28,657 nt of DNA from Escherichia phage ST-T-K: sequence record OR992647.1. The stretch is one strand, 5' to 3'. This document shows positions 11,133 to 24,670 of this stretch, piece by piece. Within the stretch, counting starts at the first letter, position 1; each line of letters starts with the position of its first letter. The translations under genes and the position numbers were made by a program. Under the pieces are notes generated by a model. That model did no database searches, had not been told where the DNA came from, and saw only the letters and a list, made by a program, of their open reading frames with translations.

Positions 11133-12659
11133 TTACTTACCTTCCAGCTTTTCTACTTTCTGCAACAGGTGAACGAAGGCAGCACACAGGTCCATCAACA
11201 GCACGTTACTGTCAAGCGACAGCACATCGTCGGTGTATCCGATCTCCTTTTGCTCGACAATCTCGTTCCCTTCCTCGTCCACGCCAACAACAACGTCCTC
11301 GTAGATTCCATGCCCTGGCAGCAAGTGCACATATTCTGGATCAATCATGGCCAGGTCCTGCGCGATAAGGCCGTAACGCTGTACGTCCGACTCCTTATAC
11401 TTAAACATTGCTGGTAGCCATTGCCGCACTCGGTTGTAACTTTCCGCGCCGTCCGTGTATTGGATTTCTTTCTTCACGTCCCGGTCTGATAGCGGTGCTT
11501 TCTGAAACTCCGACGACGATGGGTTGCCGCTGTTACCCTGAATCAGACGCCCATCCGGCAGGAAGCGGAATAGCGCCTCAGTTTCCCCATTCTTCCACGC
11601 GTGGATCCGGTAGTCTGAAATATGAGTGTCACCGGCACGAACAAGGCCCGCGCGCGCCCAGTCAGCGTACCACTTGTACATTATTTGCCCGACCCAATTG
11701 TCGATGCCCATCGAGGCGTTTGATAGAATTAAGCCGTTAGCCTCCACGTCATTGAATGTTAATGATTCGCCACCGTTCAGGCGTAATGTTGCGTGTTTAA
11801 CGTTACTGTCATCGCCCACCCCCAAAATGTTGCGCGCGGCGTACTTGTCGGCAACGTCCGCTAGGTTCTGCGACTTCTGCATGAACTTAGTGGGGTCGAT
11901 TGCGTTTTTGAAGTCCTCCGCTTCGTCGCGGTATCCTTGCGCTGCATCGCGGGCCGCTTGTGCGTCAGTCTTCGCCGTGTTGGCCTGATCTCGAATAGCG
12001 CCAGTGTCAGTCTTAATTTGATTAGTCTGGTCCTTGATGGACTGCGTATCTGTCTTAATCTGGTCGGTTTGCGTCTTGATCGTATTGGTGGCGTCGTGGA
12101 TTGCCTGCGTATCGGTCTTAATCTGGTCGGTTTGCGTCTTGATCGTATTAGTATCGTTCTTGAAGCCTTCGGCCTCGTCGCGGTATCCTTTCGCTGCGAC
12201 CTCAGATGCGGAGGCTTGTTGTTGCAGGTTGCGCATTTCCACCGGGTCGATCTGCTTCATTAGCTGCGACAGGTAGCCCCATGACATACCCTGCATTACT
12301 GTGCCGTTCGGTAACGTAACTGTGATTTCTTCAGCGTCGCCGAAGATTGCACGCCAGTTGTTCTCGTCCGCAATAAGCATACGCAGTGCTTTCTGTGCCT
12401 GGACTGTTACGCCCATCGTTGCCAGCGACATGGTATCGCGCGCAACGCCATCCCATGCAAGGCCGGATGCCGTCGGGCCGTCAAACGGCAGCACCAAAGT
12501 AAGCCCGGTGTTGCTTTCGATAGATTCGATCGCGATAGTGTAGGGGACTTGCCCCACTACGACAGAAAGGAAATCACCGGCTTTGAACGCCGAAAACGTC
12601 GTACCGGTCCCCGTTACCGACCGGCTGTTATTGGTTAATAAGATAGTACCCGCTGCCAT
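11133..12659 (-). CDS. tail fiber protein with heptad repeats and C-terminal intramolecular chaperone (peptidase S74) domain
   Basis: 508 aa. Central repeats IKTQTDQ / IKTDTQA (~10 heptads) flanked by YRDEAEGFKN and YRDEAEDFKN, reminiscent of T7 gp17-type fibers. C-terminus SDRDVKKEIQY ... YGLIAQDLAMIDPEYV ... LLQKVEKLEGK matches the endosialidase-chaperone autoprocessing domain. RBS AAGAGGA before ATG. Confidence 0.85.
   Translation of the reverse strand: MAAGTILLTNNSRSVTGTGTTFSAFKAGDFLSVVVGQVPYTIAIESIESNTGLTLVLPFDGPTASGLAWDGVARDTMSLATMGVTVQAQKALRMLIADENNWRAIFGDAEEITVTLPNGTVMQGMSWGYLSQLMKQIDPVEMRNLQQQASASEVAAKGYRDEAEGFKNDTNTIKTQTDQIKTDTQAIHDATNTIKTQTDQIKTDTQSIKDQTNQIKTDTGAIRDQANTAKTDAQAARDAAQGYRDEAEDFKNAIDPTKFMQKSQNLADVADKYAARNILGVGDDSNVKHATLRLNGGESLTFNDVEANGLILSNASMGIDNWVGQIMYKWYADWARAGLVRAGDTHISDYRIHAWKNGETEALFRFLPDGRLIQGNSGNPSSSEFQKAPLSDRDVKKEIQYTDGAESYNRVRQWLPAMFKYKESDVQRYGLIAQDLAMIDPEYVHLLPGHGIYEDVVVGVDEEGNEIVEQKEIGYTDDVLSLDSNVLLMDLCAAFVHLLQKVEKLEGK
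12042..12149 (-). repeat. in-frame tandem repeat within the tail fiber gene
   Basis: 45-bp unit ctgcgtatc(t/g)gtcttaatctggtcggtttgcgtcttgatcgtatt at 12042-12086 and 12105-12149 (one mismatch, 63-bp period), within a run of related heptad-coding units. Confidence 0.65.
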
Positions 12660-12677: not shown

Positions 12678-12710
12678 TTGGTTGCATTCTTGATTGAGCG
12701 GTGCAATACT
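12678..12710 (+). promoter_or_regulatory. candidate promoter of the moron (TTGGTTGC element, extended -10)
   Basis: TTGGTTGC at 12678-12685; -35 TTGCAT (12682-12687), 17-nt spacer, TG at 12702-12703, -10 AATACT (12705-12710). Lies in the divergent region between the fiber start and the lipoprotein gene. Confidence 0.4.
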
Positions 12711-12740
12711 AAAACTCAACCAAATATAGGAGATGATAAC

Positions 12741-12962
12741 ATGAAAACTTTAATTATGATTTGTGCGGTCCTTTTGTCCGGTTGTGCTGTAGAACGCAAC
12801 AACGGCGATTGCATTACGGTTGCTTACGGTAGCTGCATGTTACGCTACATTGACGGGCAAAAAGTCCCTGCCGGTGATGTGGACATGCGCTTCACTGGTC
12901 TGTCTGCCGATAGCGACGGCAATTTTTCCGGTACAGTATCAGTTAAATCACGGGAGTGGTAA
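12741..12962 (+). CDS. small lipoprotein, candidate Cor/Llp-like superinfection-exclusion protein
   Basis: ATG at 12741 with AGGAG at 12728-12732; MKTLIMICAVLLSGC has a lipobox (LLSGC) following a signal peptide; 73 aa; sits next to the receptor-binding tail genes. Confidence 0.6.
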   Translation: MKTLIMICAVLLSGCAVERNNGDCITVAYGSCMLRYIDGQKVPAGDVDMRFTGLSADSDGNFSGTVSVKSREW

Positions 12963-12964
12963 TA

Positions 12965-13930
12965 ATGGGCGCTGGAATACTCATCGACTACAACGACGGA
13001 CGACCGATTATGGAGATAACTGCCGGTTTGCGCGCTCCGTCATACTGCACTACGTTTGACCAGCGCTGCCAGTCCGACAAGACGCTGACCATTAATACCC
13101 CGCTAACCCCAGGGTCGGATCTTGTCGTTGCGCTCACGCGCCCGGTAGAAGTGCTTGAGGTGTTCGACCAGACGCTGGTTCTCCCCGACCCGTTCTACGT
13201 GACGTCGGTACAGCGCAACGGGGATAGTGGAATTATCCTTCGAGGCGCGGACGCGCATAACGCATACAGCGGCCTCCCGCAATGGGCGGGTATAATTATG
13301 GAAGTGCTGCCGGTGGGGTCACGCAATGCGGGCTTACTGGTGGCGAACTCGACAGACTTCACCGCGATTTCCAACGTGTCCCGGTTAATGACCTGCCGCT
13401 ACGCGCAGCGCGTGCACGTGAACGGTAGTATGCCTTTGCCTGTGGGCGGTATCCCGTTCGCGCGCTGGGATAATGGCAACGTATCGGTAGGCTTCGATGG
13501 TAGTAGTATCATCGTCCGCAATTCGTCTTATGGCGGGATTGATGACGTCGGGGCCGAAGTGGACTTGGATCTGGTTATCTTCAACAATACGCCGCCATCA
13601 CCGGGGACTGGTATCACCATGACGAACAACCAGGGGCAGGTCACGTTCTCGACCGTTAACAAGCCGTTTGTGCTCAATTCGGTAATTAATATCGGCACCG
13701 GCGGTCAGAATATCGGCAATAGCCTCGTACAGCTTTCATATACCGGCGCGCTCATTGAGAACAACAGCGGCTACAACCACGTTCGAATGAACGGGATACG
13801 CATGGCGGGTAACGTGGTTAGTGCGGCGCGTAATCGCGTAATCGGTAACTACTCACGGCAGCAATTCCAGATGCCTGACCGCAACATAACCGTCCCAACC
13901 CCGTTACTCGTCATACCTAACATGTATTAA
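12965..13930 (+). CDS. hypothetical Gly/Asn/Ser/Val-rich protein (321 aa), co-transcribed with the lipoprotein
   Basis: ATG at 12965 with GGGAG at 12952-12956, 2 nt after the lipoprotein stop; composition suggests a beta-rich fiber-like or surface protein; followed by a terminator. Confidence 0.55.
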   Translation: MGAGILIDYNDGRPIMEITAGLRAPSYCTTFDQRCQSDKTLTINTPLTPGSDLVVALTRPVEVLEVFDQTLVLPDPFYVTSVQRNGDSGIILRGADAHNAYSGLPQWAGIIMEVLPVGSRNAGLLVANSTDFTAISNVSRLMTCRYAQRVHVNGSMPLPVGGIPFARWDNGNVSVGFDGSSIIVRNSSYGGIDDVGAEVDLDLVIFNNTPPSPGTGITMTNNQGQVTFSTVNKPFVLNSVINIGTGGQNIGNSLVQLSYTGALIENNSGYNHVRMNGIRMAGNVVSAARNRVIGNYSRQQFQMPDRNITVPTPLLVIPNMY

Positions 13931-13956: not shown

Positions 13957-16900
13957 TTACCACGTCCCGACTTTAACCCTTCCCCCTCCAGGTAATGGCA
14001 CGTTGACGCCCGTTGCGTCGATCGTAACGGACCCGCCGGAGAATCCGAAATTACCCGTAGTCGCGAACAAGTTGCCGCGTACCGTTACGTTGTTGAACTC
14101 CGCCCCGCCATCCTTCGCGATACGCCAGCCGCTGTTACCTGGATTCCAGTTATTGGATTGCAGCGTGTCCGTGATCTGCGCGAAGTTAATAGACGCGTTC
14201 TTGATTCGTGCCGTGTCAATATACACCTGCCCGCCGTCAACGATAAACGCGGACGAAAGCGATCCATTAGACGGGTGCATGATATAGAACTGGTCCGCCT
14301 TGAACGCGATGCGGGATTTAACCGCGCCACCTTCCGCCACAACGGAAAGCTGCATACCAGCATCGTAGTACGTCCCGTTATACGTCACGCCAGCTTTAAG
14401 ACTGTAGGTGGCGCTGCCGCCAGCATGGTTAAACGATGACGTCATCTTCTGCTCGATAGCTGCGGACTGCTGACCGAACTGTGCCGCTACCTGGGTCTTA
14501 TACTCCGCCAGCGCGCCCGCTACGTCTGCCGTTGCCGTTTGTACCTGCTGGATGGCAGCTTCCTGTTCCCCGAACTTAGCGGCAACAGTTTGTTGATACT
14601 GGGCGAACGCTTGTTCGTGCGTGCTTTGCGCAGTCTGCAACGTGTGGATTGACGCTTCCGCATCGTCAAGGCGTGTGCCGATCAGCGTTTCCAGTTGCGC
14701 TACGGCCTCGTTTGCGTCCACCGCAACGTTGTACGCCACCTTGATTTCCGCATAAATCCCTTGATACTCGGAGCGGGCGTTGAATAGCTGCTGGGCGTCC
14801 GTTAGCATCGACTCATAGATGCCTTGCGGAATTGTGTCGATTGCTTCCTGGAAGTGTTTACCGTCCTCGGAAGTCAAAAACTCGTCATCAAGCCCCTGCA
14901 TGTACTCGTCAACTTTGTCACTCACCTGTCCGTCAAACGGGTCTGACCAGTCTGACAGGTTGCCGATTTTATCCGCTACACGGGCGCGCAACTGCTGGTA
15001 GATCCCGAACTCCAGCGACGTTTGCGCATAGTCCGACCCCGGATATGGGACGTTGGTCAAGAATCTCCATTCAGTTTCACCCAGCTTGCGCACTTCAAGC
15101 TCGGTATACGAAATATCCGTTGCGGCGTTGTTGTGATTCCACTTCCACAAAATTTGGTGAAGGCCAGAAATCGCGTTGGTGATGATTGGCGCGTTTAGCC
15201 CTCCAAGACGACCCTCGACCGGCGTGATTGCGGATGACACCCACGGGGATGAAATCTCGCCCATACCGATCGCGCGGACGCGTGCCTGGTAGTTACCAGA
15301 AAACACGTTCGGGATGTGCGCGCCGTTCGAGGCCGTGCGGGGAATGTTCACCCAGTCGTTGCCCCACTGGATTTCCAGATTCTGCAAGCTGGTACGTCGC
15401 CACTGGATTTCGTATACAACGGCATCCTTCACCGGTGGGAAAACAATATCCACGTTAGTGATTAGCTGGCCTTGTGATGAAATCTGCGACGGGGTGATGG
15501 TAACGGATTCTGGCCCCTTCATTACGCCGTCCGGCACTTGAGTGAAGATACCTGGATCAAGACGCGCGCCATTATCAACGGCATCATATTTGCTATCGTT
15601 GTACTCAATCCCGCGCACCGAAAAAGTGCTGGTAGCGTCGTCATATTCCAGATCGGTGATGCGGAACTTCTGCAACTGGATATCGTCGCCATCAACGCAA
15701 AACGGCTGATCAGGAATCGGGTCGGCGTCCAGTGCGGTTTTTAGCGTGACCGCGTTGCCGTTGACGCTGGCAATCTCGCGAGTCTCCACATTACCGCTAT
15801 CGGTGCGCACCAGGAATTTGTCCCCAGGGCGGAACGTGATTTCGCTGTCCGTGTTCAGCACGGTGCGCGTGCCCGGATCTGACAACAGGCGTCCGCCGCG
15901 TGTCTCGAATCCGCCAGAAATGTTAGTATCCGCGATTGCGACTACGCTCCCCGGAATAAAGAATAGCCCCTCCATGCCAACCTTGAAGCTAACTTGCTGG
16001 TCAAGCTGGTTGGAGATTAGCGCCCAGTGCCCGCGGCGTTGCGCTTCGGATTCACGCGTACAGCCGATCGCCGTAATATCAAGGCGGTTAATCTTATGGC
16101 GGCGCACCAGTTCGACACGTTGGCCCGTTGCGATGGCATCTTCATAATGGTTCTTCGGGTTGCCGTAGGCTACCGCGAACGTGGAATACCGAGTTTTCTG
16201 GCTTCCTGATGCGTAGTCGAATCGACCATCAATGACCGAGGCGTTTGTGATAGTGTGCGATACCGCTGCGACCGGCTGGTCACTGACGATATTCAACATC
16301 TGGTTGCCCCACCAGGTCATTCCGGCAAAGATAGCCGCTAAATCCTTCAGCACGGTCCATGCGTCGGTCTGCGACTGAATGTACATATCATTCTTAAATC
16401 GGATTTCCTGTCCGCCGTTGCCGTCACTGACTTTCTGATCGCAGCGCTGTGCAATCTGGTAGAGCGCGTACCGGTTTAGCATTTGCGGCTTGACACGACG
16501 ACCAAGGCCGAAGCGCTCAGTAATACAAATATCGTACCAGTGCCACGCAGGGTTATCCGTCCATGCGCGTTTAAATGTGCCATCCCAGTCCCCCGAATAG
16601 GTATGATTAATCGGGTCGTAGTTGTTCGGGACCAGCACCTTGCGGCCTTTGCACTTGATTGACACTCGCGGGATATTCTGGAACGCCTTAGCGTCGAACT
16701 CCACGAACAACAGCGCGGTTAGCGGGTAACGCAGACGGGCGTCGATAATCTCAGTAATGGATTGTACCTGGATATCGTTGACCACTTTTGCCGATGTGGA
16801 ATCAGCCGTTGTGCGGTGCACCTCCACGCGCCAGCCGGTGTTGACGTTCGGCGGTAATTCGATGCGGTGGTCGCGCTCATACAGCGACATTGTTTTACCA

Positions 16901-17403
16901 ACGGCAGCGAATGTAAACTCCCGCGGATCAGCATTATCGGTATACACAACAATTTTATAGTCGATGCGCCCGCCCACCAGATCGCCATTATCTTCGTTGG
17001 TGTACAGGGCAGGAATACCGATTCGAATGCGCACCGCGTCCAGACTGGTATCCGAAATCTGGCGGACCCACGGCTGGCCCTGTTCCAGTTTTACGCCTAC
17101 TGTTTGCTCGCTTTCCACCGCTGAAAAACCGTGAATCACATCCTGGTGCTGCGTGCCGGGGCGGAACTCCACGCGCGCGCCGGGGAAGTTATCCGACAGG
17201 TCGGCGTTCTGGATCGGTGTGCCGTCCAGGTATACACGCTGCCGTAATTCGTTAGGGTCGGGAATGCCTTCAAATTCGCCCTCGCCCAGTGCGAGCAAGA
17301 TGCGGATTTTAGCCAGCGAATGCAGGCTATCAGGCGTCTCCTGTGGGGTGTGCTGTTTGCCTCCGCCGCCTTTATGGCCCGTGACGTCGTATACAATCGT
17401 CAT
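13957..17403 (-). CDS. central tail fiber / host specificity protein, lambda gpJ-like
   Basis: 1148 aa. N-terminus GHKGGGGKQHTPQETPDSL ... VEFRPGTQHQDVIHGF parallels the lambda J N-terminus as recalled. ATGA overlap with the upstream gene. Confidence 0.9.
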   Translation of the reverse strand: MTIVYDVTGHKGGGGKQHTPQETPDSLHSLAKIRILLALGEGEFEGIPDPNELRQRVYLDGTPIQNADLSDNFPGARVEFRPGTQHQDVIHGFSAVESEQTVGVKLEQGQPWVRQISDTSLDAVRIRIGIPALYTNEDNGDLVGGRIDYKIVVYTDNADPREFTFAAVGKTMSLYERDHRIELPPNVNTGWRVEVHRTTADSTSAKVVNDIQVQSITEIIDARLRYPLTALLFVEFDAKAFQNIPRVSIKCKGRKVLVPNNYDPINHTYSGDWDGTFKRAWTDNPAWHWYDICITERFGLGRRVKPQMLNRYALYQIAQRCDQKVSDGNGGQEIRFKNDMYIQSQTDAWTVLKDLAAIFAGMTWWGNQMLNIVSDQPVAAVSHTITNASVIDGRFDYASGSQKTRYSTFAVAYGNPKNHYEDAIATGQRVELVRRHKINRLDITAIGCTRESEAQRRGHWALISNQLDQQVSFKVGMEGLFFIPGSVVAIADTNISGGFETRGGRLLSDPGTRTVLNTDSEITFRPGDKFLVRTDSGNVETREIASVNGNAVTLKTALDADPIPDQPFCVDGDDIQLQKFRITDLEYDDATSTFSVRGIEYNDSKYDAVDNGARLDPGIFTQVPDGVMKGPESVTITPSQISSQGQLITNVDIVFPPVKDAVVYEIQWRRTSLQNLEIQWGNDWVNIPRTASNGAHIPNVFSGNYQARVRAIGMGEISSPWVSSAITPVEGRLGGLNAPIITNAISGLHQILWKWNHNNAATDISYTELEVRKLGETEWRFLTNVPYPGSDYAQTSLEFGIYQQLRARVADKIGNLSDWSDPFDGQVSDKVDEYMQGLDDEFLTSEDGKHFQEAIDTIPQGIYESMLTDAQQLFNARSEYQGIYAEIKVAYNVAVDANEAVAQLETLIGTRLDDAEASIHTLQTAQSTHEQAFAQYQQTVAAKFGEQEAAIQQVQTATADVAGALAEYKTQVAAQFGQQSAAIEQKMTSSFNHAGGSATYSLKAGVTYNGTYYDAGMQLSVVAEGGAVKSRIAFKADQFYIMHPSNGSLSSAFIVDGGQVYIDTARIKNASINFAQITDTLQSNNWNPGNSGWRIAKDGGAEFNNVTVRGNLFATTGNFGFSGGSVTIDATGVNVPLPGGGRVKVGTW

Positions 17404-18017
17404 TCGTTCAAATCCTCGGTTACGATTCCGGCTGAAATAATAGCGCCGCCGATCTCACGCTCGCCCCATAATACACCAAGTGCCGTACCTTGCGCGGTCG
17501 TGTTTACAGGCCCGCCAAACGCATACGACGCCTTGTTATCCACGTCCTGCCGTGTCTGCAATCCTTTCGGTTGTGGTGACAGCAATTGCATAGCGCCGCC
17601 CAGCGCAAGCGACATACCAAAAGAAAACGTCGCCGTCCCAATAGCGGCAGCGGTCGCAGCGGAAGCACCGAAAGCGGCAGCGGCAAGCCCGCCGGTGTAG
17701 AACGACGCCACCACGATAGCTACGCCAGCCAGCAATTGTCCGAGTCCGCTTTTAGCACCAGTCATAACCGGCGCGATGGTAACTACGCGGTCGCCGTGGA
17801 ACTCCCCTAACTCGCCATAGCCGGTCATTGTGTGATTACCCTTGCGCACCTTAAACATCATGTTTCCCAAGTGGGCCGACATTAGAAAGTCCTGTAAGCC
17901 GGGTAACTTCACGCATAGGCCGGTGATACCCTCGCCAGGTGTGAAACAGTCCAGCTTGTGCACTTTACCAAAACGACGTCCTAAGACGCCGTACAATTTA
18001 AATGTGGTCATTGCCAT
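17400..18017 (-). CDS. tail assembly protein, lambda gpI-like
   Basis: 205 aa; N-terminal region followed by a Gly/Ala-rich hydrophobic C-terminal half (AGVAIVVASFYTGGLAAAAFGASAATAAAIG), as in gpI; position between K and J. Confidence 0.8.
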   Translation of the reverse strand: MAMTTFKLYGVLGRRFGKVHKLDCFTPGEGITGLCVKLPGLQDFLMSAHLGNMMFKVRKGNHTMTGYGELGEFHGDRVVTIAPVMTGAKSGLGQLLAGVAIVVASFYTGGLAAAAFGASAATAAAIGTATFSFGMSLALGGAMQLLSPQPKGLQTRQDVDNKASYAFGGPVNTTAQGTALGVLWGEREIGGAIISAGIVTEDLNE

Positions 18018-18748
18018 TCTGTAATATCCCCAGGTAAGTCTTTATGACGTACCCATTTAACCACATTGTCGCGGAAAAATCCTGCCCGGAAGGGGACCAC
18101 GCTCGACAGGCTGCCGTAGATATGGTGCAGTAGTTGGTTGCCCGGAAGGAAGATCCCAGCATGGTTAGGCACTGGCGCGCTAATCTGCATGATGACCATC
18201 GCCCCCGGTGTATTCTCCTCGCACTCCCGGAACCCCGCATCATACCAGTTATCCATGTACAGGCTTTCGCCCATTTCCCACCAGTTATACGGCACGCGGA
18301 AGTCAGGAAGAATCACGCCCTGCTTTTTGTGCCAGTCCATGACGAGGCCATAGCAATCCGTAATTCCGAGAACAAATCGGCGACCTACCAGCGGCGGGTC
18401 TTCCGGGTCGATCTCGATAAAGTCGCCATACTCATTGGTGATGGTCCACACAATGCCGCTGCCGTTGCATCCGTTAACGTCCCCCAATGACGGGGTTAGA
18501 TCCCTCTGTCCGGGATGTGAGTGGACTACGCGCACGACGTCGCCAATATCCTCGGCGTCCATCCATGCCATATCACTAATGGTAAACGCGTCCTTACGCG
18601 AGCGCGCGCCGGTCGGGTCTTCGAACACGTTCATGCACGGGACGAATACTTGTTTGCGGCCCACCATGACGACCAGGCCGCAGGCTTCTTCAGGCAGACA
18701 TGCCGCAACGTGTGCGGCGATATCGCTCTTAACCTTCTTCGTTAACAT
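18008..18748 (-). CDS. tail assembly protein, lambda gpK-like (JAB/MPN plus NlpC/P60 domains)
   Basis: JAMM-like EEACGLVV ... VHSHPGQRDLTPSLGD; NlpC/P60-like DCYGLV and HAGIFL; 246 aa. Confidence 0.85.
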   Translation of the reverse strand: MLTKKVKSDIAAHVAACLPEEACGLVVMVGRKQVFVPCMNVFEDPTGARSRKDAFTISDMAWMDAEDIGDVVRVVHSHPGQRDLTPSLGDVNGCNGSGIVWTITNEYGDFIEIDPEDPPLVGRRFVLGITDCYGLVMDWHKKQGVILPDFRVPYNWWEMGESLYMDNWYDAGFRECEENTPGAMVIMQISAPVPNHAGIFLPGNQLLHHIYGSLSSVVPFRAGFFRDNVVKWVRHKDLPGDITEWQ

Positions 18749-18750
18749 GA

Positions 18751-19539
18751 CTACCCCTTAATTAATCTGGACCCCGGAAAGCCGCCATAATCCAGCACCG
18801 CCGCTTTCGGGTCCGCAAGCCCTTGTCCGAATCGAAGGTAACAGTCTGACAAACAGCCGCCACATCGGTCCATATCCATCGCGATTACTTCATTGCCGCG
18901 TTCGTCATAATACTTGATGCCTGGCTGTGCAAGGTTCCAGGTGCACCCGTCGCCGCTGGCGTACTTCCCATTGAGCGCCCATTCGCACATATTCATGATT
19001 TGGCGGCGTGGGACTACTTGCCCCTCCATATCCGCGGGTGAGGATAATGCGAAGGTGATTTGTTTGCCCGGATTGCGACCGACCTGTGAGTCGATGTAAA
19101 ACTCCTGGACACGCTTTTGCGTTGGGTCTGGATCTGGCCCGTTGTCCAGGAACTTAGCAAACGTGTCGATGATTTCAACCTTCGCGCCCAGTAGCTGGTC
19201 GTGATTCAGCGATAGCCGGGTGATAATCCCGCCAATATCGACGATAGTTAGCTGTGGTTCTGCTGCCGTTGATGTGGAGAAGTTGAGGCCGGATAAATCG
19301 AAGGGCCAAAATTCGAACTCCTGCCCGCCGAAGAAGATAGATTTTGGCTTTAGCTTGTCCTCGTCGCCACCGGCGGCAGCAATATCTTCGGCAGTGTGCG
19401 GAATAAAGCAATAATGAAAATAGTGGTGGCCCGCGCCGATCGCGCCGTCGCCCGGCTCCACGTCCTGCGCATCAATGTGAATCAGGCGAACGCGGCCCGA
19501 TGGGTCAAAGCGCGTCGCCTCACGATATAGTTTATTCAT
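18751..19539 (-). CDS. minor tail protein, lambda gpL-like
   Basis: 262 aa; C-terminal Cys cluster CGGCLSDC ... C as in lambda L; position between M-like and K. Confidence 0.8.
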   Translation of the reverse strand: MNKLYREATRFDPSGRVRLIHIDAQDVEPGDGAIGAGHHYFHYCFIPHTAEDIAAAGGDEDKLKPKSIFFGGQEFEFWPFDLSGLNFSTSTAAEPQLTIVDIGGIITRLSLNHDQLLGAKVEIIDTFAKFLDNGPDPDPTQKRVQEFYIDSQVGRNPGKQITFALSSPADMEGQVVPRRQIMNMCEWALNGKYASGDGCTWNLAQPGIKYYDERGNEVIAMDMDRCGGCLSDCYLRFGQGLADPKAAVLDYGGFPGSRLIKG

Positions 19540-20135
19540 CTTACGAATCCAATAGCTGTCTTAAGGGTGGCTGATACCGTTGCCGTGTAGTGTCCGTTGT
19601 CTGTGTACGACAAGCTCGAACGCTCGACCACGAATAAACCTGTTTCGCCATCCGGCGCGGTGACGACAAACGGCTTGACGAAGTGCCCGCGAAGGAAGTT
19701 GTACACCAATTTAGGGTCGCACCACTTGTCAGTAGTCAGTCCGATGAATTGCACGGGGAACTGTTTCGTCTCGGCGTTCGGGCCGTCTGCGATGTTCTGA
19801 CCATAGCCGTTACCGAATTGCAATTCCTCCGACCGGAAAGCCAACTGTACGTCACCTCCGCCCTGCAATTGCATGTGCCAGTAATAGGGCCATTCGTTTG
19901 ATCGCGGGTCGTGCGCTTCGATTAGTTCATAGGCTGCACCGGCTTTTGTCGGACCGGCCCAGTTATCCACCAGGGTGATGACGGTGTTTGAGTTGAATGC
20001 CGCAATCTTGCCGGTGTAGTCGTTGCCGTCGATGCGGGCAAATACGCGGACCTTCCCGATCTCGCTCAAGAACGCCGTCCCCGCGCCCGTGACGGTCTTA
20101 CTTCCGTTAGTTAGTGTGATTGTACCTTGTGCCAT
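19536..20135 (-). CDS. distal tail protein (gpM/Dit-like) with fiber-like N-terminal domain; start ambiguous (20135, 20168 or 20195)
   Basis: Located between tape measure and L. N-terminus MAQGTITLTNGSKTVTGAGTAF aligns with the tail fiber N-terminus. The alternative ATG at 20168 lies 5 nt after the tape measure stop. Confidence 0.6.
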   Translation of the reverse strand: MAQGTITLTNGSKTVTGAGTAFLSEIGKVRVFARIDGNDYTGKIAAFNSNTVITLVDNWAGPTKAGAAYELIEAHDPRSNEWPYYWHMQLQGGGDVQLAFRSEELQFGNGYGQNIADGPNAETKQFPVQFIGLTTDKWCDPKLVYNFLRGHFVKPFVVTAPDGETGLFVVERSSLSYTDNGHYTATVSATLKTAIGFVR

Positions 20136-20172
20136 AAAAAAAGCCCCCACGTTGGATGTGAGGGCCATTTTA

Positions 20173-22815
20173 TCATCGTTTGTATAGTACTCCACCCGGT
20201 TTCGTCGCTTTCACGATCTCGGCCTTGACCGACTCGGTGATTTGCTTTCCAAACGCCTGCGCGGTGCGTGGGTCCGGTCCGCTCACACTGGTGTCCGTCT
20301 TACCGGTCCCAGTGTAAACGTTGGTCGTTACAATCATCCCACCCCCTGCACCGGCAGCGGCAACGCCCAGTTTTCCATCCGGCCCGCGCTTAAGTGGCAT
20401 GATAGCCTCGGGTCCAGCCTCACCCATCAATCCAGCGCCCTTAGCGAACGCCTGAACGCCATAACTGAAAAAGGTGGGCTGGCTTACCACTTGACCGGAA
20501 TAGGCCGCGAGATTGCCTCCTGCGTACGCTCCGCCGTCTGCGTTCTTAGTGAGGCCCGAGAAGATAGCGCCGAACAATCCGTTTTTGCCGCCGTCACCGC
20601 CGAAAGCGCTAACGATGGATTTGAACGCCTGCGAGGTAGCCAGCTTGATTAATTCGCTCAGGATGGACTTAACCATATCCTTTGCGTTCAGCTTGCCTGT
20701 CTCGAAAAACTCGTTCATCGTGTCCTGCATAGCGCCGAACGTGAATTTTGTGAGTGACGTCATCTGCGTGTAGCCGTTCCCCATTTCATCCACGCTATCC
20801 TTAAGCCCGCGGCTGAAGCCATCCCACAACGAAGCGTTAGCACCGGTCTGTGCTTCCTGCACTTCGCGCAGCTTAGACACCGCGTTGTCAATATCAGTAT
20901 CGTTAGCGCCGACACGCTGAAGGCGGTCAATTAGCTGCAATTCTTCGCGCAGGTTAGCCGCTTCGCGAGTGGAAAGCGCATAGCCCGCGGCGGTGGCCCG
21001 TAGCTCGGCGTTCTGGTTCTTGATGAATGCCTCGACCTGGGCGTGTGCCTTGATCTGCTTCTCTTTCGCGTCCAGCAATTTGGCTTCTTCGACGATCTGC
21101 TCGCGTACCGCTTTAACCGCCTCGAACTCTGCCATTTGCTGCTTTTCTGCTGCCGTTAGTGTGCGTTCCTTGCTTGCTGCGACCATTTGCTCATTATCCG
21201 CCACCAGCTTATTCAACGCGGCCTGTGCGCGCTGCGTGCGGGTCTGCGTTGTGGCATTGGCTTCGATCTGCTTGCCGGACTCCTTAAGCTGTGCCAGTTC
21301 GCTCCGTGCGACCTCCAGCATTTTAACACCGGCATCGACGCGAATTGCCGCCGCCTTTTTCGGTGCGGGGTCTTTGTAGCGCTCGTTTACCTGCTTCACC
21401 GCCTCGGCTAGTTCTTTCTCGTTAATCACACCGCGCTTATTCAGTAAATTGAGGCGGGCGATCTCGTCGGCGCGCTTCTTCGCGTTGGTGGCAAATTCCT
21501 TCTCGAACGCGGCGCGGTCGCGGGCGGTGCGGTTGGCCTCCTCGTTCGCCTTCGCTGATTTGTCCGCAGCGCTGGCGTTGTCGCGCTCGGCACGGTTACG
21601 CAGGGTGAGCGACGCTACTACTTTTTCCTGTGCGACCAGTTCGCTATAAAGCATGTTAATACGTGCTTTCTGCGCGTCGGTCATTACCCCACCGGCAGCG
21701 TTTACCGCTTTCATCTCAGCATAGTAAGCCGTGGTCATGCGCTGCAATGACTCACGCGCTTTCATCTCGGACTCATTCGAGGACTGCGCGCGGCCCACAT
21801 CCAGGATGGCATCCCACATAGATTTAGCTGCCGATGTGACGACGTTCATCGATCGCTCAAGCGTACCCATGTTGGACTTGATCTCGTTGGTCATGCTGGT
21901 GAACGACGCCGCGGCTGTTTTGTTAGCCAGCGCCACCGCTTCGGTTTCGCGACCCGTCGTAACCAGTGACTGCACCTGCTGGATCTGCGCCTCGGTAACG
22001 ACGTGATACTTGTCCGCCAGTGCGCGCAGTCCGCCTACCGGGTCGTTGGACAATTTAGAGATAGACTCCACCACGTCCGCGATCGGCTGATTAGACACCT
22101 TCGCGAAGTCGTTCACCACTTTCGCCAGCGCGCCGAAGTCAGCACCAGCTTTAACACCTGCCGCCGCCAGCGCCTGAATTGTGTCACGCGTCTTGCTGAA
22201 TGATCCGCCCATGCGTTCGGCGTTCTCCGACAGCACCAGGATCTGGTTAGCGGTGAGGCCGGAGATGTTACCGGATAGCGCCAGCGTCTTATTCAGCGCC
22301 GCTACCTGGTTTTCTGCACGGGACGTAATTGCCACGCCTACGCCCAACGTTGCCGTTACCGCAGCAAGGCCGATCCCTACCGGACCGAGAAAGCCTGCAA
22401 CATAACGCAGCGTGTTACCCAGTCCGCCGAACGCCCCAGTTAACTGCGGTAACTGCTGAAGCATAACGCGGTGCACCGGCATACCCATCTCAAGCGTCAC
22501 CGCAATATCCTGTAACTGGAATGCGGCGTTGCGTGAGGCAAAGCCCAGGTTTTTGGTAGACATGCCTAAGCGGTTGGCAAGTCGCTCCTGTTTCGTCATG
22601 CCATCGGCGGCGCGCTGTGATTCAGTCGCTAACTTCCCCATTCCGCCCGCGGCGTCACTCGTCACCTTTTTCGAGTTGCCGAGGGTGTCGTTTAATTTCT
22701 TAACCTTGTTTTCGGTGTTCTCGGACTTCTGCGCGAATGAGTCCAGCACCGTATTCGCCGTTCTGATTTGTGCAACATCCGCCTTTAGCGTGATGCCTGC
22801 TGCTTGATCTGCCAT
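20173..22815 (-). CDS. tail tape measure protein
   Basis: 880 aa, Ala/Gln/Lys-rich predicted coiled coil with a Gly-rich hydrophobic C-terminal region; located between chaperone G/T and the distal tail genes; RBS GGGGA before ATG at 22815. Confidence 0.85.
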   Translation of the reverse strand: MADQAAGITLKADVAQIRTANTVLDSFAQKSENTENKVKKLNDTLGNSKKVTSDAAGGMGKLATESQRAADGMTKQERLANRLGMSTKNLGFASRNAAFQLQDIAVTLEMGMPVHRVMLQQLPQLTGAFGGLGNTLRYVAGFLGPVGIGLAAVTATLGVGVAITSRAENQVAALNKTLALSGNISGLTANQILVLSENAERMGGSFSKTRDTIQALAAAGVKAGADFGALAKVVNDFAKVSNQPIADVVESISKLSNDPVGGLRALADKYHVVTEAQIQQVQSLVTTGRETEAVALANKTAAASFTSMTNEIKSNMGTLERSMNVVTSAAKSMWDAILDVGRAQSSNESEMKARESLQRMTTAYYAEMKAVNAAGGVMTDAQKARINMLYSELVAQEKVVASLTLRNRAERDNASAADKSAKANEEANRTARDRAAFEKEFATNAKKRADEIARLNLLNKRGVINEKELAEAVKQVNERYKDPAPKKAAAIRVDAGVKMLEVARSELAQLKESGKQIEANATTQTRTQRAQAALNKLVADNEQMVAASKERTLTAAEKQQMAEFEAVKAVREQIVEEAKLLDAKEKQIKAHAQVEAFIKNQNAELRATAAGYALSTREAANLREELQLIDRLQRVGANDTDIDNAVSKLREVQEAQTGANASLWDGFSRGLKDSVDEMGNGYTQMTSLTKFTFGAMQDTMNEFFETGKLNAKDMVKSILSELIKLATSQAFKSIVSAFGGDGGKNGLFGAIFSGLTKNADGGAYAGGNLAAYSGQVVSQPTFFSYGVQAFAKGAGLMGEAGPEAIMPLKRGPDGKLGVAAAGAGGGMIVTTNVYTGTGKTDTSVSGPDPRTAQAFGKQITESVKAEIVKATKPGGVLYKR

Positions 22816-23944: not shown

Positions 23945-24670
23945 TCAAGACAATGCCTCGACCAGATCCTTACGGTAGATAACCATATCAGACTGCATGG
24001 TCAGAGTGGATTGTACCGTTTCCACGTTGTTTACTTCAGCGGACGGAATCTTCTGGAAAGATACCTTAGCCGGGTAAATACGGATTTCACCTTTGCCGCT
24101 TGCTGCCGCTGGGTTAGTGAACTTAATCACAGTGGTTTTCTGTGTGTCGTCCAGGTCTTCCAGGATAGGGCGGATCGGGTCTTCTTCGTCGTGGGTGAAG
24201 GTGTAAGTCTGGACCAACGGGTTTTTCGTGGTGTTCAGACTGATCGCGGTGTTCACCTGCAACGGCTGGAAGGTAGTCGTCTGCTGGTCGCCACCCGACA
24301 CGGCAACGTTAGTGATAAACGGGAAGTCGATAAAGCTCGACACCTTCACCACTTCACCCGGCGTTCCAACCGCAAAAGCGCCGGTAGGGTATTTGGTGAC
24401 GTCTTCGGTGTCGAAGCGCGCCAGCGTCACGTCGTTAGTCTCCACTTTACCCACGATGAACGCGCGGTTAAGGGCACGGACCCACGGGGTTTTGGTGAAC
24501 ATTACCACGTCACCAACTGCCAGACCGTGAGAAGCCGCGCAGGTAATAACGCAACCAGTGGTAAGGTCGGAGATTGACGCGGTGGCGTTGGTAGCTGCCG
24601 TAACCGCGATGCCTGCGCCTAATACGGACCCAATCTGGACGCTGGACCCGTTAGGAAGTTGATAACCCAT
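23945..24670 (-). CDS. major tail protein
   Basis: 241 aa; RBS AGGAG 7 nt before ATG at 24670; position upstream of G/G-T; followed by a strong terminator. Confidence 0.7.
   Translation of the reverse strand: MGYQLPNGSSVQIGSVLGAGIAVTAATNATASISDLTTGCVITCAASHGLAVGDVVMFTKTPWVRALNRAFIVGKVETNDVTLARFDTEDVTKYPTGAFAVGTPGEVVKVSSFIDFPFITNVAVSGGDQQTTTFQPLQVNTAISLNTTKNPLVQTYTFTHDEEDPIRPILEDLDDTQKTTVIKFTNPAAASGKGEIRIYPAKVSFQKIPSAEVNNVETVQSTLTMQSDMVIYRKDLVEALS

Follow-up and report, generated by a model that had tools for sequence, protein, structure and literature searches.

Why should a ring protein of a phage tail begin with the first domain of a tail fibre? This question was raised by two minus-strand genes in the window, the whole 28,657-nucleotide stretch of Escherichia phage ST-T-K that was analysed here (OR992647.1): the gene of a distal tail protein (DTP) homologous to lambda gpM, and the gene of a lateral tail fibre. 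A first-pass annotation had claimed that the two proteins shared a homologous N-terminal domain of about 75 residues, and had read it either as a common anchor by which both dock to one tail site or as a domain duplicated between the two proteins.

The N-terminal module shared by the DTP and the fibre

BLASTP comparison of the 219-aa mechanically called open reading frame (ORF) of the DTP (19536-20195) with the 508-aa fibre (11133-12659) revealed an ungapped match with 29/70 identities (41%, E = 8e-10), in which residue 1 of the fibre was aligned with residue 21 (Met21) of the ORF. The Smith-Waterman score of the pair was 115, whereas 5000 composition-preserving shuffles of either partner gave means of 26-28, a standard deviation of about 5 and maxima of 57-59 (z = 17-19, Gumbel p ~2e-11). 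The alignment against shuffled controls that the first-pass annotation had asked for thus bore out its shared domain, with the length corrected to about 72 residues; its distance of about 7.5 kb between the genes held from start to start, and from the end of one gene to the start of the other it was about 6.9 kb. A chance or compositional resemblance of two Gly/Thr-rich N-termini can be practically discounted: both segments were rich in G, T, S and A, but no composition-preserving shuffle came near the observed score, the PHROG and hidden Markov model (HMM) matches were reciprocal, and the same positions were conserved across the family. Because the nucleotide identity of the two copies in register was only 46% (40% at third codon positions), recent gene conversion between them was ruled out, and the copies are best described as old paralogous modules with homology at the protein level. 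A search with the module HMM found exactly two copies in the window and no further ones, the tail tube protein included. BLAST also returned a second high-scoring segment pair between the DTP core (aa 124-180, 19596-19766) and the S74 region of the fibre (aa 422-478, 11226-11396), with 36% identity over 59 aa, an E value of 2e-4 and a z of about 8. This match was probably due to chance, because its signal was lost with the gpM family profile (score 2.0, equalled or exceeded by 36 of the 1346 shuffles giving a score) and when plain gpM homologues replaced the DTP (z ~0).

AlphaFold 2 (AF2) prediction from a 60-row alignment gave a two-domain model of the DTP, in which the core was recognisable and the module showed six strands and a short helix with a predicted local distance difference test score (pLDDT) of 87-95; an 11-sequence alignment gave a module pLDDT of about 30. 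As modelled, the module is a small six-stranded beta-barrel, and its fold matched the N-terminal particle-binding domains of spikes and fibres such as those of Phi92 (gp150), phi297, AP22, K64-1 and Milano. No Pfam family covered the module, and tail-fibre PHROGs matched it. In an exhaustive profile search, 3203 cluster representatives carried it at E<=1e-3, nearly all at residues 1-73 of proteins of 250-800 aa, and the fibres among them included N15 gp25, ES18 gp33 and the side fibres of F-pyocins. Both copies in the window were homologous in sequence to this module of the F-pyocin PyoF13 and N15 gp25 type, the DTP copy matching the F-pyocin side fibre 25ve with a phmmer E of 0.004 and a profile E of 6e-4. 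Among the 3203 representatives, a gpM core was fused to the module only in the cluster of the Dhillonviruses (P0001).

The conserved N-terminal region of the fibres reached about residue 127 and consisted of the module, a stem helix and a small beta unit, and the DTP had the first 72 residues only. The stem was the best conserved part of the fibre (87-97% identity among Dhillonviruses); T81, Q87, A91, L92, R93, D98, N101, W102 and, further on, W127 were invariant in the window, its relatives L004 and L006, N15 and ES18. The N-terminus of the window fibre was 44-49% identical to those of N15 and ES18, and the BASEL papers describe the N-termini of lateral fibres as conserved and as probably attaching to the virion. 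A position at residue 1 of a trimeric fibre, with a stem helix following, was found for the fibre copy and not for the DTP copy. The DTP is not a member of the fibre family and carries the fibre's first domain only. No donor of the DTP module was identifiable, since it was about 35-48% identical to all sampled fibre modules and 28-43% identical to that of its own phage. Further along the fibre, the shaft (aa ~165-215) contained near-perfect tandem sequence repeats (TNTIKTQTDQIKTDTQ...).

The module was also found outside fibres and DTPs. Giant proteins of 1200-2900 aa (P0011, encoded at 8001-12674 of L011, and P0012, P0013, P0019 and P0115) contained 10-13 tandem copies of the same module, there of about 65 residues, followed by PKD domains, and from these arrays the "anchor" barrel appears to serve as a repeat unit as well. 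On a contig of 89 kb, P0011 was encoded downstream of a tape measure gene. The tandem arrays gave weak summed matches to PF05354, the family of lambda gpFII-type head-tail attachment proteins.

Fusion of the module to a gpM-type core

The DTP scored 43.8 bits against PF05939 (Phage_min_tail), above the curated cut-off of 39, matched the T1 DTP 9l9p_H with a phmmer E of 3.8e-12, and was near-identical to PDB 23gd_B, the "Distal tail protein gp20" of the Oekolampad tail tip (E 2.6e-131), so that the structure of this protein has already been determined experimentally. It has the tail-tube fold of a tube-to-hub ring protein, and its gene directly followed that of the tape measure protein (TMP) and preceded the homologues of gpL, gpK, gpI and gpJ, as expected of the gpM type. 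The PF05939 match covered only residues 106-207 of the ORF, and the first-pass annotation was right that the protein is about twice the size of lambda gpM. The gene was, however, shorter than the interval 19536-20195 first given to it. Translation almost certainly begins with the ATG at 20135, giving 199 aa, because the 199-aa form was annotated in Bas85, Oekolampad and HK578, the PDB 23gd chain also had 199 aa, and a GGGGG motif lay 8 nt upstream of the ATG. The excluded 60 nt are probably outside the translated DTP. Annotated starts varied among public records (199, 212 and 218 aa, the longer ones for instance in McMelon and JLBYU60, respectively); the longer forms entered the 3' end of the TMP gene, and the 199-aa form fitted both the PDB chain and the alignment with the fibre.

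The closest relatives of the gpM core (P0005-P0010) were plain proteins of 122-125 aa with 55-65% identity to it. These plain homologues started with MA-x-x-WPYYW, 2-4 residues before the WPYYW motif, and in the DTP the same motif (aa 82-86) was preceded by the module (aa 1-72) and a 9-residue linker. The relatives L004, L005 and L006 had a plain 123-aa gpM in the same gene order as in the window, together with an 880-aa TMP, a 246-aa K, a 205-206-aa I, a 1085-1148-aa J, a DUF6453 receptor-binding protein, a lipoprotein and a lateral fibre. N15 and ES18 likewise had plain 115-aa gpM homologues (gp17 and gp23) and carried the module on gp25 and gp33. Since the nearest relatives of the core were plain in tails of the same gene order, the module appears to have been gained by gpM in the Dhillonvirus lineage. 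The fibres of L004, L005 and L006 carried both module and stem despite the plain gpM. Because the module stood on the fibre beside a plain gpM in these relatives and in N15 and ES18, the N-terminal region of the fibre seems to work in tails with a module-free DTP too, and the DTP copy appears dispensable for fibre attachment. The explanations first offered were supported in part: a duplicated domain is in keeping with old paralogous modules and domain shuffling, and a single docking site common to both proteins appeared very unlikely.

A different insertion was found next to the plain gpM of two relatives, both Dhillonvirus-like phages from metagenomes. In L004 (10362-11609) and L005 (6133-7380), the gpL homologue had 415 aa instead of 262 owing to an insertion of about 150 aa after residue ~57, which had no Pfam match and weakly resembled residues 502-617 of the R4C "Megatron" protein (8gtc_M, E 1.7e-4). 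This insertion looks like an alternative tail-tip decoration, and different insertions in sister lineages are the pattern expected of exchangeable surface decorations.

Selection on the module was analysed in six Dhillonvirus alleles (15 pairwise comparisons). The ratio of nonsynonymous to synonymous rates (omega) of the DTP module was 0.03-0.70, mostly 0.03-0.44, and below 1 in 15 of 15 pairs, and that of the gpM core was 0.01-0.06; the nonsynonymous rate (dN) of the module was 2-14 times that of the core, and 5-14 times in all pairs without LM40P1. By these values, the module is constrained by purifying selection yet much freer than the ring-forming core. It was intact in frame and length in about 190 Dhillonvirus records, with 70-99% identity. 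The divergence of the DTP module was uncoupled from that of the fibre module. In bov16_1, the DTP module was 65-69% identical to those of Oekolampad, HK578, Bas85 and the window, whereas the fibre module was 94-97% identical to those of the first three; the window showed a typical DTP module and a divergent fibre module (75-79% identity to the others). The fibre N-modules (aa 1-72) of the five other Dhillonviruses were 82-97% identical among themselves, and that of the window was identical only to those of three close relatives, CHD5UKE2, WF5505 and 101114BS4.

Predicted position and possible role of the DTP-borne barrels

The reading that we favour, with a probability of roughly 0.5, is that domain shuffling produced a decorated DTP with six fibre-type barrels at the tube/tip junction and that the fibre sits on the shaft of the central fibre J. 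In the Dhillonvirus lineage, a fibre-type beta-barrel of about 72 aa would have been fused to the N-terminus of a gpM-type DTP. In lambda, gpM is a hexameric ring whose residues K2 and W6, close to the N-terminus, are turned to the external Stf collar where gpV and gpM meet (PMC12617516), and W6 corresponds to the WPYYW motif of the DTP. On this basis, six DTP-borne barrels on tethers of about 9 residues would be expected outside the tube/tip junction. They may form a built-in accessory collar or decoration, in analogy to pb9 of T5 with its OB-fold domain or to LSH1 gp24, which is decorated at its N-terminus, and a role in weak surface adhesion or junction stabilisation, not as an obligatory fibre receptor, is plausible. 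An accessory decoration appeared most likely because the module was optional in sister lineages, lacked the stem, evolved faster than the core and did not co-vary with the fibre.

For the lateral fibre itself, docking by module and stem on the predicted coiled-coil shaft of J is most likely, by analogy with its homologues in the F2 and F7 pyocins. The N-domain of F-pyocin side fibres, which is described as OB-like and similar to the T5 pb9 decoration, grips the coiled coil of the central fibre (PMC13455828; PMC12874032), and in the F2 pyocin the homologous module is arranged in a six-membered ring to which each side-fibre trimer contributes two of its three subunits (PMC13455828). The J of the window aligned to the distal coiled coil and tip of the central fibres of the F2 pyocin and T1, and the glycine of a QYG motif in the shaft was conserved in five phages (the window, L004, L006, N15 and ES18). 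This glycine recalls the Gly kink of the F2 pyocin, which makes up the docking site of the side fibre there; the alignment gave no equivalence. The coiled-coil shaft (~aa 880-960) was 48 residues longer in the window and L004 than in L006, N15 and ES18.

Several points weigh against a decoration combined with a shaft-docked fibre. The module fold is not known to bind carbohydrates or to mediate adhesion. The docking of the fibre on the J shaft is argued by analogy only, and the kink and docking site of F2 (residues 953-956) could not be mapped on the window J, where the confident alignment started at F2 residue 978. The retention of the module in all of the ~190 Dhillonvirus records was more than a dispensable ornament might predict. 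Finally, the module self-associates into rings in F-pyocins, and a DTP copy that recruits fibres remains plausible.

In such an arrangement, the six DTP barrels would be the docking platform of the lateral fibres: fibre modules would pack on DTP modules by the lateral barrel-barrel contacts from which the pseudo-sixfold ring of F-pyocins is built, giving a hetero-oligomeric collar at the tube/tip junction, for example of six DTP and six fibre modules with the third module of each fibre peripheral. This is the main rival and possible, but we consider it doubtful. The six-membered ring of the homologous module in the F2 pyocin (PMC13455828) is in keeping with it, as are the 12-membered collars by which the side fibres of Ur-lambda and T5 attach at exactly the tube/tip junction (PMC12617516), the contact of lambda gpM with the Stf collar at the place where the DTP N-terminus lies, the joint presence of module and fibre in every Dhillonvirus record examined, and the purifying selection on the module. 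It is difficult to reconcile with fibres that carry module and stem beside a plain gpM, with no extra collar gene, in L004, L005, L006, N15 and ES18, with modules that fail to co-vary (bov16_1 and the window showing opposite patterns), with PDB 23gd, which has no modelled fibre chain, and with the solved homologues, which dock on the central fibre and not on the DTP. We regard as unlikely the specific form in which gp20 barrels and the barrels of fibre trimers co-assemble like-with-like into a mixed collar, half of which would be hard-wired into the DTP.

The two other explanations fared worse. That the fusion is a historical accident, a near-neutral passenger with no current function, is improbable: close relatives whose tail genes are otherwise the same lack the fused module, and it evolved faster than the core, but the omega values below 1 in every pair, the intact frame and length at the identities given above and the well-folded domain predicted by AF2 all speak for constraint. 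The common anchor of the first-pass annotation, by which DTP and fibre would both dock to one tail site, has a very low probability. The module is N-terminal in both proteins, and in other phages spikes and fibres are fixed to the virion by N-terminal domains of its fold; however, gpM rings assemble through the tail-tube-fold core without any module in lambda, T1, N15, ES18 and P0005-P0010, the stem, which contributes to docking in the pyocins, is absent from the DTP copy, and one site could not take up six DTP and nine fibre copies unless they formed a mixed collar.

Related systems and the tail gene cluster

The DTP of the window belongs to the same ring family as lambda gpM and the T1 minor tail protein (PF05939), and the members of lambda (109 aa), T1 (117 aa), and N15 and ES18 (115 aa) lack its 72-residue barrel and linker. 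With a core and an additional globular domain, it resembles other decorated DTPs: T5 pb9, with a tail-tube-like domain and the OB-fold domain B; the monocin DTP, with a C-terminal galectin-like domain; and LSH1 gp24, a gpM homologue with a galactose-binding-like domain that gives a precedent for N-terminal decoration (PMC13243795). The F-pyocin side fibre PyoF13 (PDB 25ve, 25vj) has an N-terminal module homologous to that of the window, and the central fibres of the two systems are homologous as well. In PyoF13, N15 gp25 and ES18 gp33 the module was on the fibre only, whereas Dhillonviruses add a second, stem-less copy on the DTP. The collars formed by the Stf N-domain of Ur-lambda and by T5 p132 or DT57C LtfC surround the tube/DTP junction, the predicted position of the DTP module. 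Those collars are Ig-like, 12-membered and non-covalent, whereas the DTP module differs from them in fold, is joined covalently to its protein and would number six; the Ig-like or sheet-plus-helix fold (six strands) that builds a 12-mer collar was not found in it.

Literature searches found no description of the sharing of a domain between DTP and fibre or of PDB 23gd, and as far as we found the homology of the two modules is undescribed; DTPs with an extra domain and the mosaic reuse of fibre domains are already well known. The attachment of side fibres in siphophages is only now being resolved, and a DTP with the first domain of the fibre is a natural experiment in it. Three or four solutions have emerged since 2023, namely Ig-like collars (T5, Ur-lambda), a DTP loop (monocin) and the shaft of the central fibre (F-pyocins). 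A mixed collar, if true, would be a fourth, previously undescribed mode and would explain why a ring protein carries a fibre domain; a docking platform on the DTP would also give a handle for fibre swapping in the BASEL Dhillonviruses, a model genus in wide use. If the DTP copy is a decoration, the "anchor" barrel would be a general-purpose building block. Although thousands of clusters contain the module, some of them in tandem arrays, Pfam has no family for it, which leaves the N-termini of fibres and the DTP extension unannotated.

The features of the locus are collected in the table.

Table. Features of the DTP, the lateral fibre and the surrounding tail genes, in window coordinates
Feature	Coordinates	Strand	Evidence or remark
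DTP gene, gpM homologue with extra N-terminal module, 199 aa + stop	19536-20135	-	PF05939; phrog_9922 full length, E 9e-141
Fibre-type N-terminal beta-barrel module of DTP (predicted), aa 1-72	19920-20135	-	41% identity to fibre aa 1-70; module HMM E 2e-29; AF2
Linker between module and gpM core, aa 73-81 (LIEAHDPRSNE region)	19893-19919	-	alignment with plain homologues; low pLDDT
gpM core (tail-tube fold), aa 82-199 + stop	19536-19892	-	
Upstream part of mechanical ORF	20136-20195	-	GTG-initiated; overlaps 3' end of TMP gene (TMP ends at 20173)
Lateral tail fibre gene, 508 aa	11133-12659	-	phrog_1980 tail fibre, E 6e-117; annotated as lateral tail fibre in BASEL Dhillonviruses
Fibre N-terminal beta-barrel module (predicted), aa 1-72	12444-12659	-	BLASTP and shuffles; module HMM E 3e-32
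Fibre stem helix and small beta unit, aa 73-135	12255-12443	-	conserved in fibres, absent from DTP copy
Fibre C-terminal intramolecular chaperone region (Peptidase_S74) + stop	11133-11489	-	PF13884, 29.8 bits, aa 391-444
J-like central fibre / tip protein, 1148 aa	13957-17403	-	PF24801, PF13550, PF09327; PDB 23gd_D; F2-pyocin central fibre E 1e-225
Predicted alpha-helical coiled-coil shaft of J, ~aa 850-985; candidate lateral-fibre docking site	14449-14856	-	analogy with F-pyocins (PMC13455828, PMC12874032)
gpI-like protein	17400-18017	-	
gpK-like protein	18008-18748	-	
gpL-like hub protein	18751-19539	-	PF05100, 124.8 bits; PDB 23gd_C
TMP	20173-22815	-	PF06791, PF09718
Tail tube protein	23945-24670	-	

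Escherichia phage vB_EcoS-101114BS4 shared 96% nucleotide identity with the window, and about 150 genomes of Dhillonviruses, among them HK578, JL1, SSL-2009a and the BASEL isolates, were co-linear with it. The minus strand of the window carried a lambda-like tail module in the order tube, tape measure, DTP, L, K, I and J. Between J and the fibre, two genes were found on the plus strand, a lipoprotein ORF (12678-12962), with its signal peptide MKTLIMICAVLLSGC inside the mechanical ORF, and the gene of a 324-aa DUF6453 protein (12956-13930, E 3e-118). They correspond to the pair of an Rtp45-like superinfection-exclusion protein and an Rtp44 / RBP_Oeko-like receptor-binding protein that is known from Dhillonviruses and T1-like phages.

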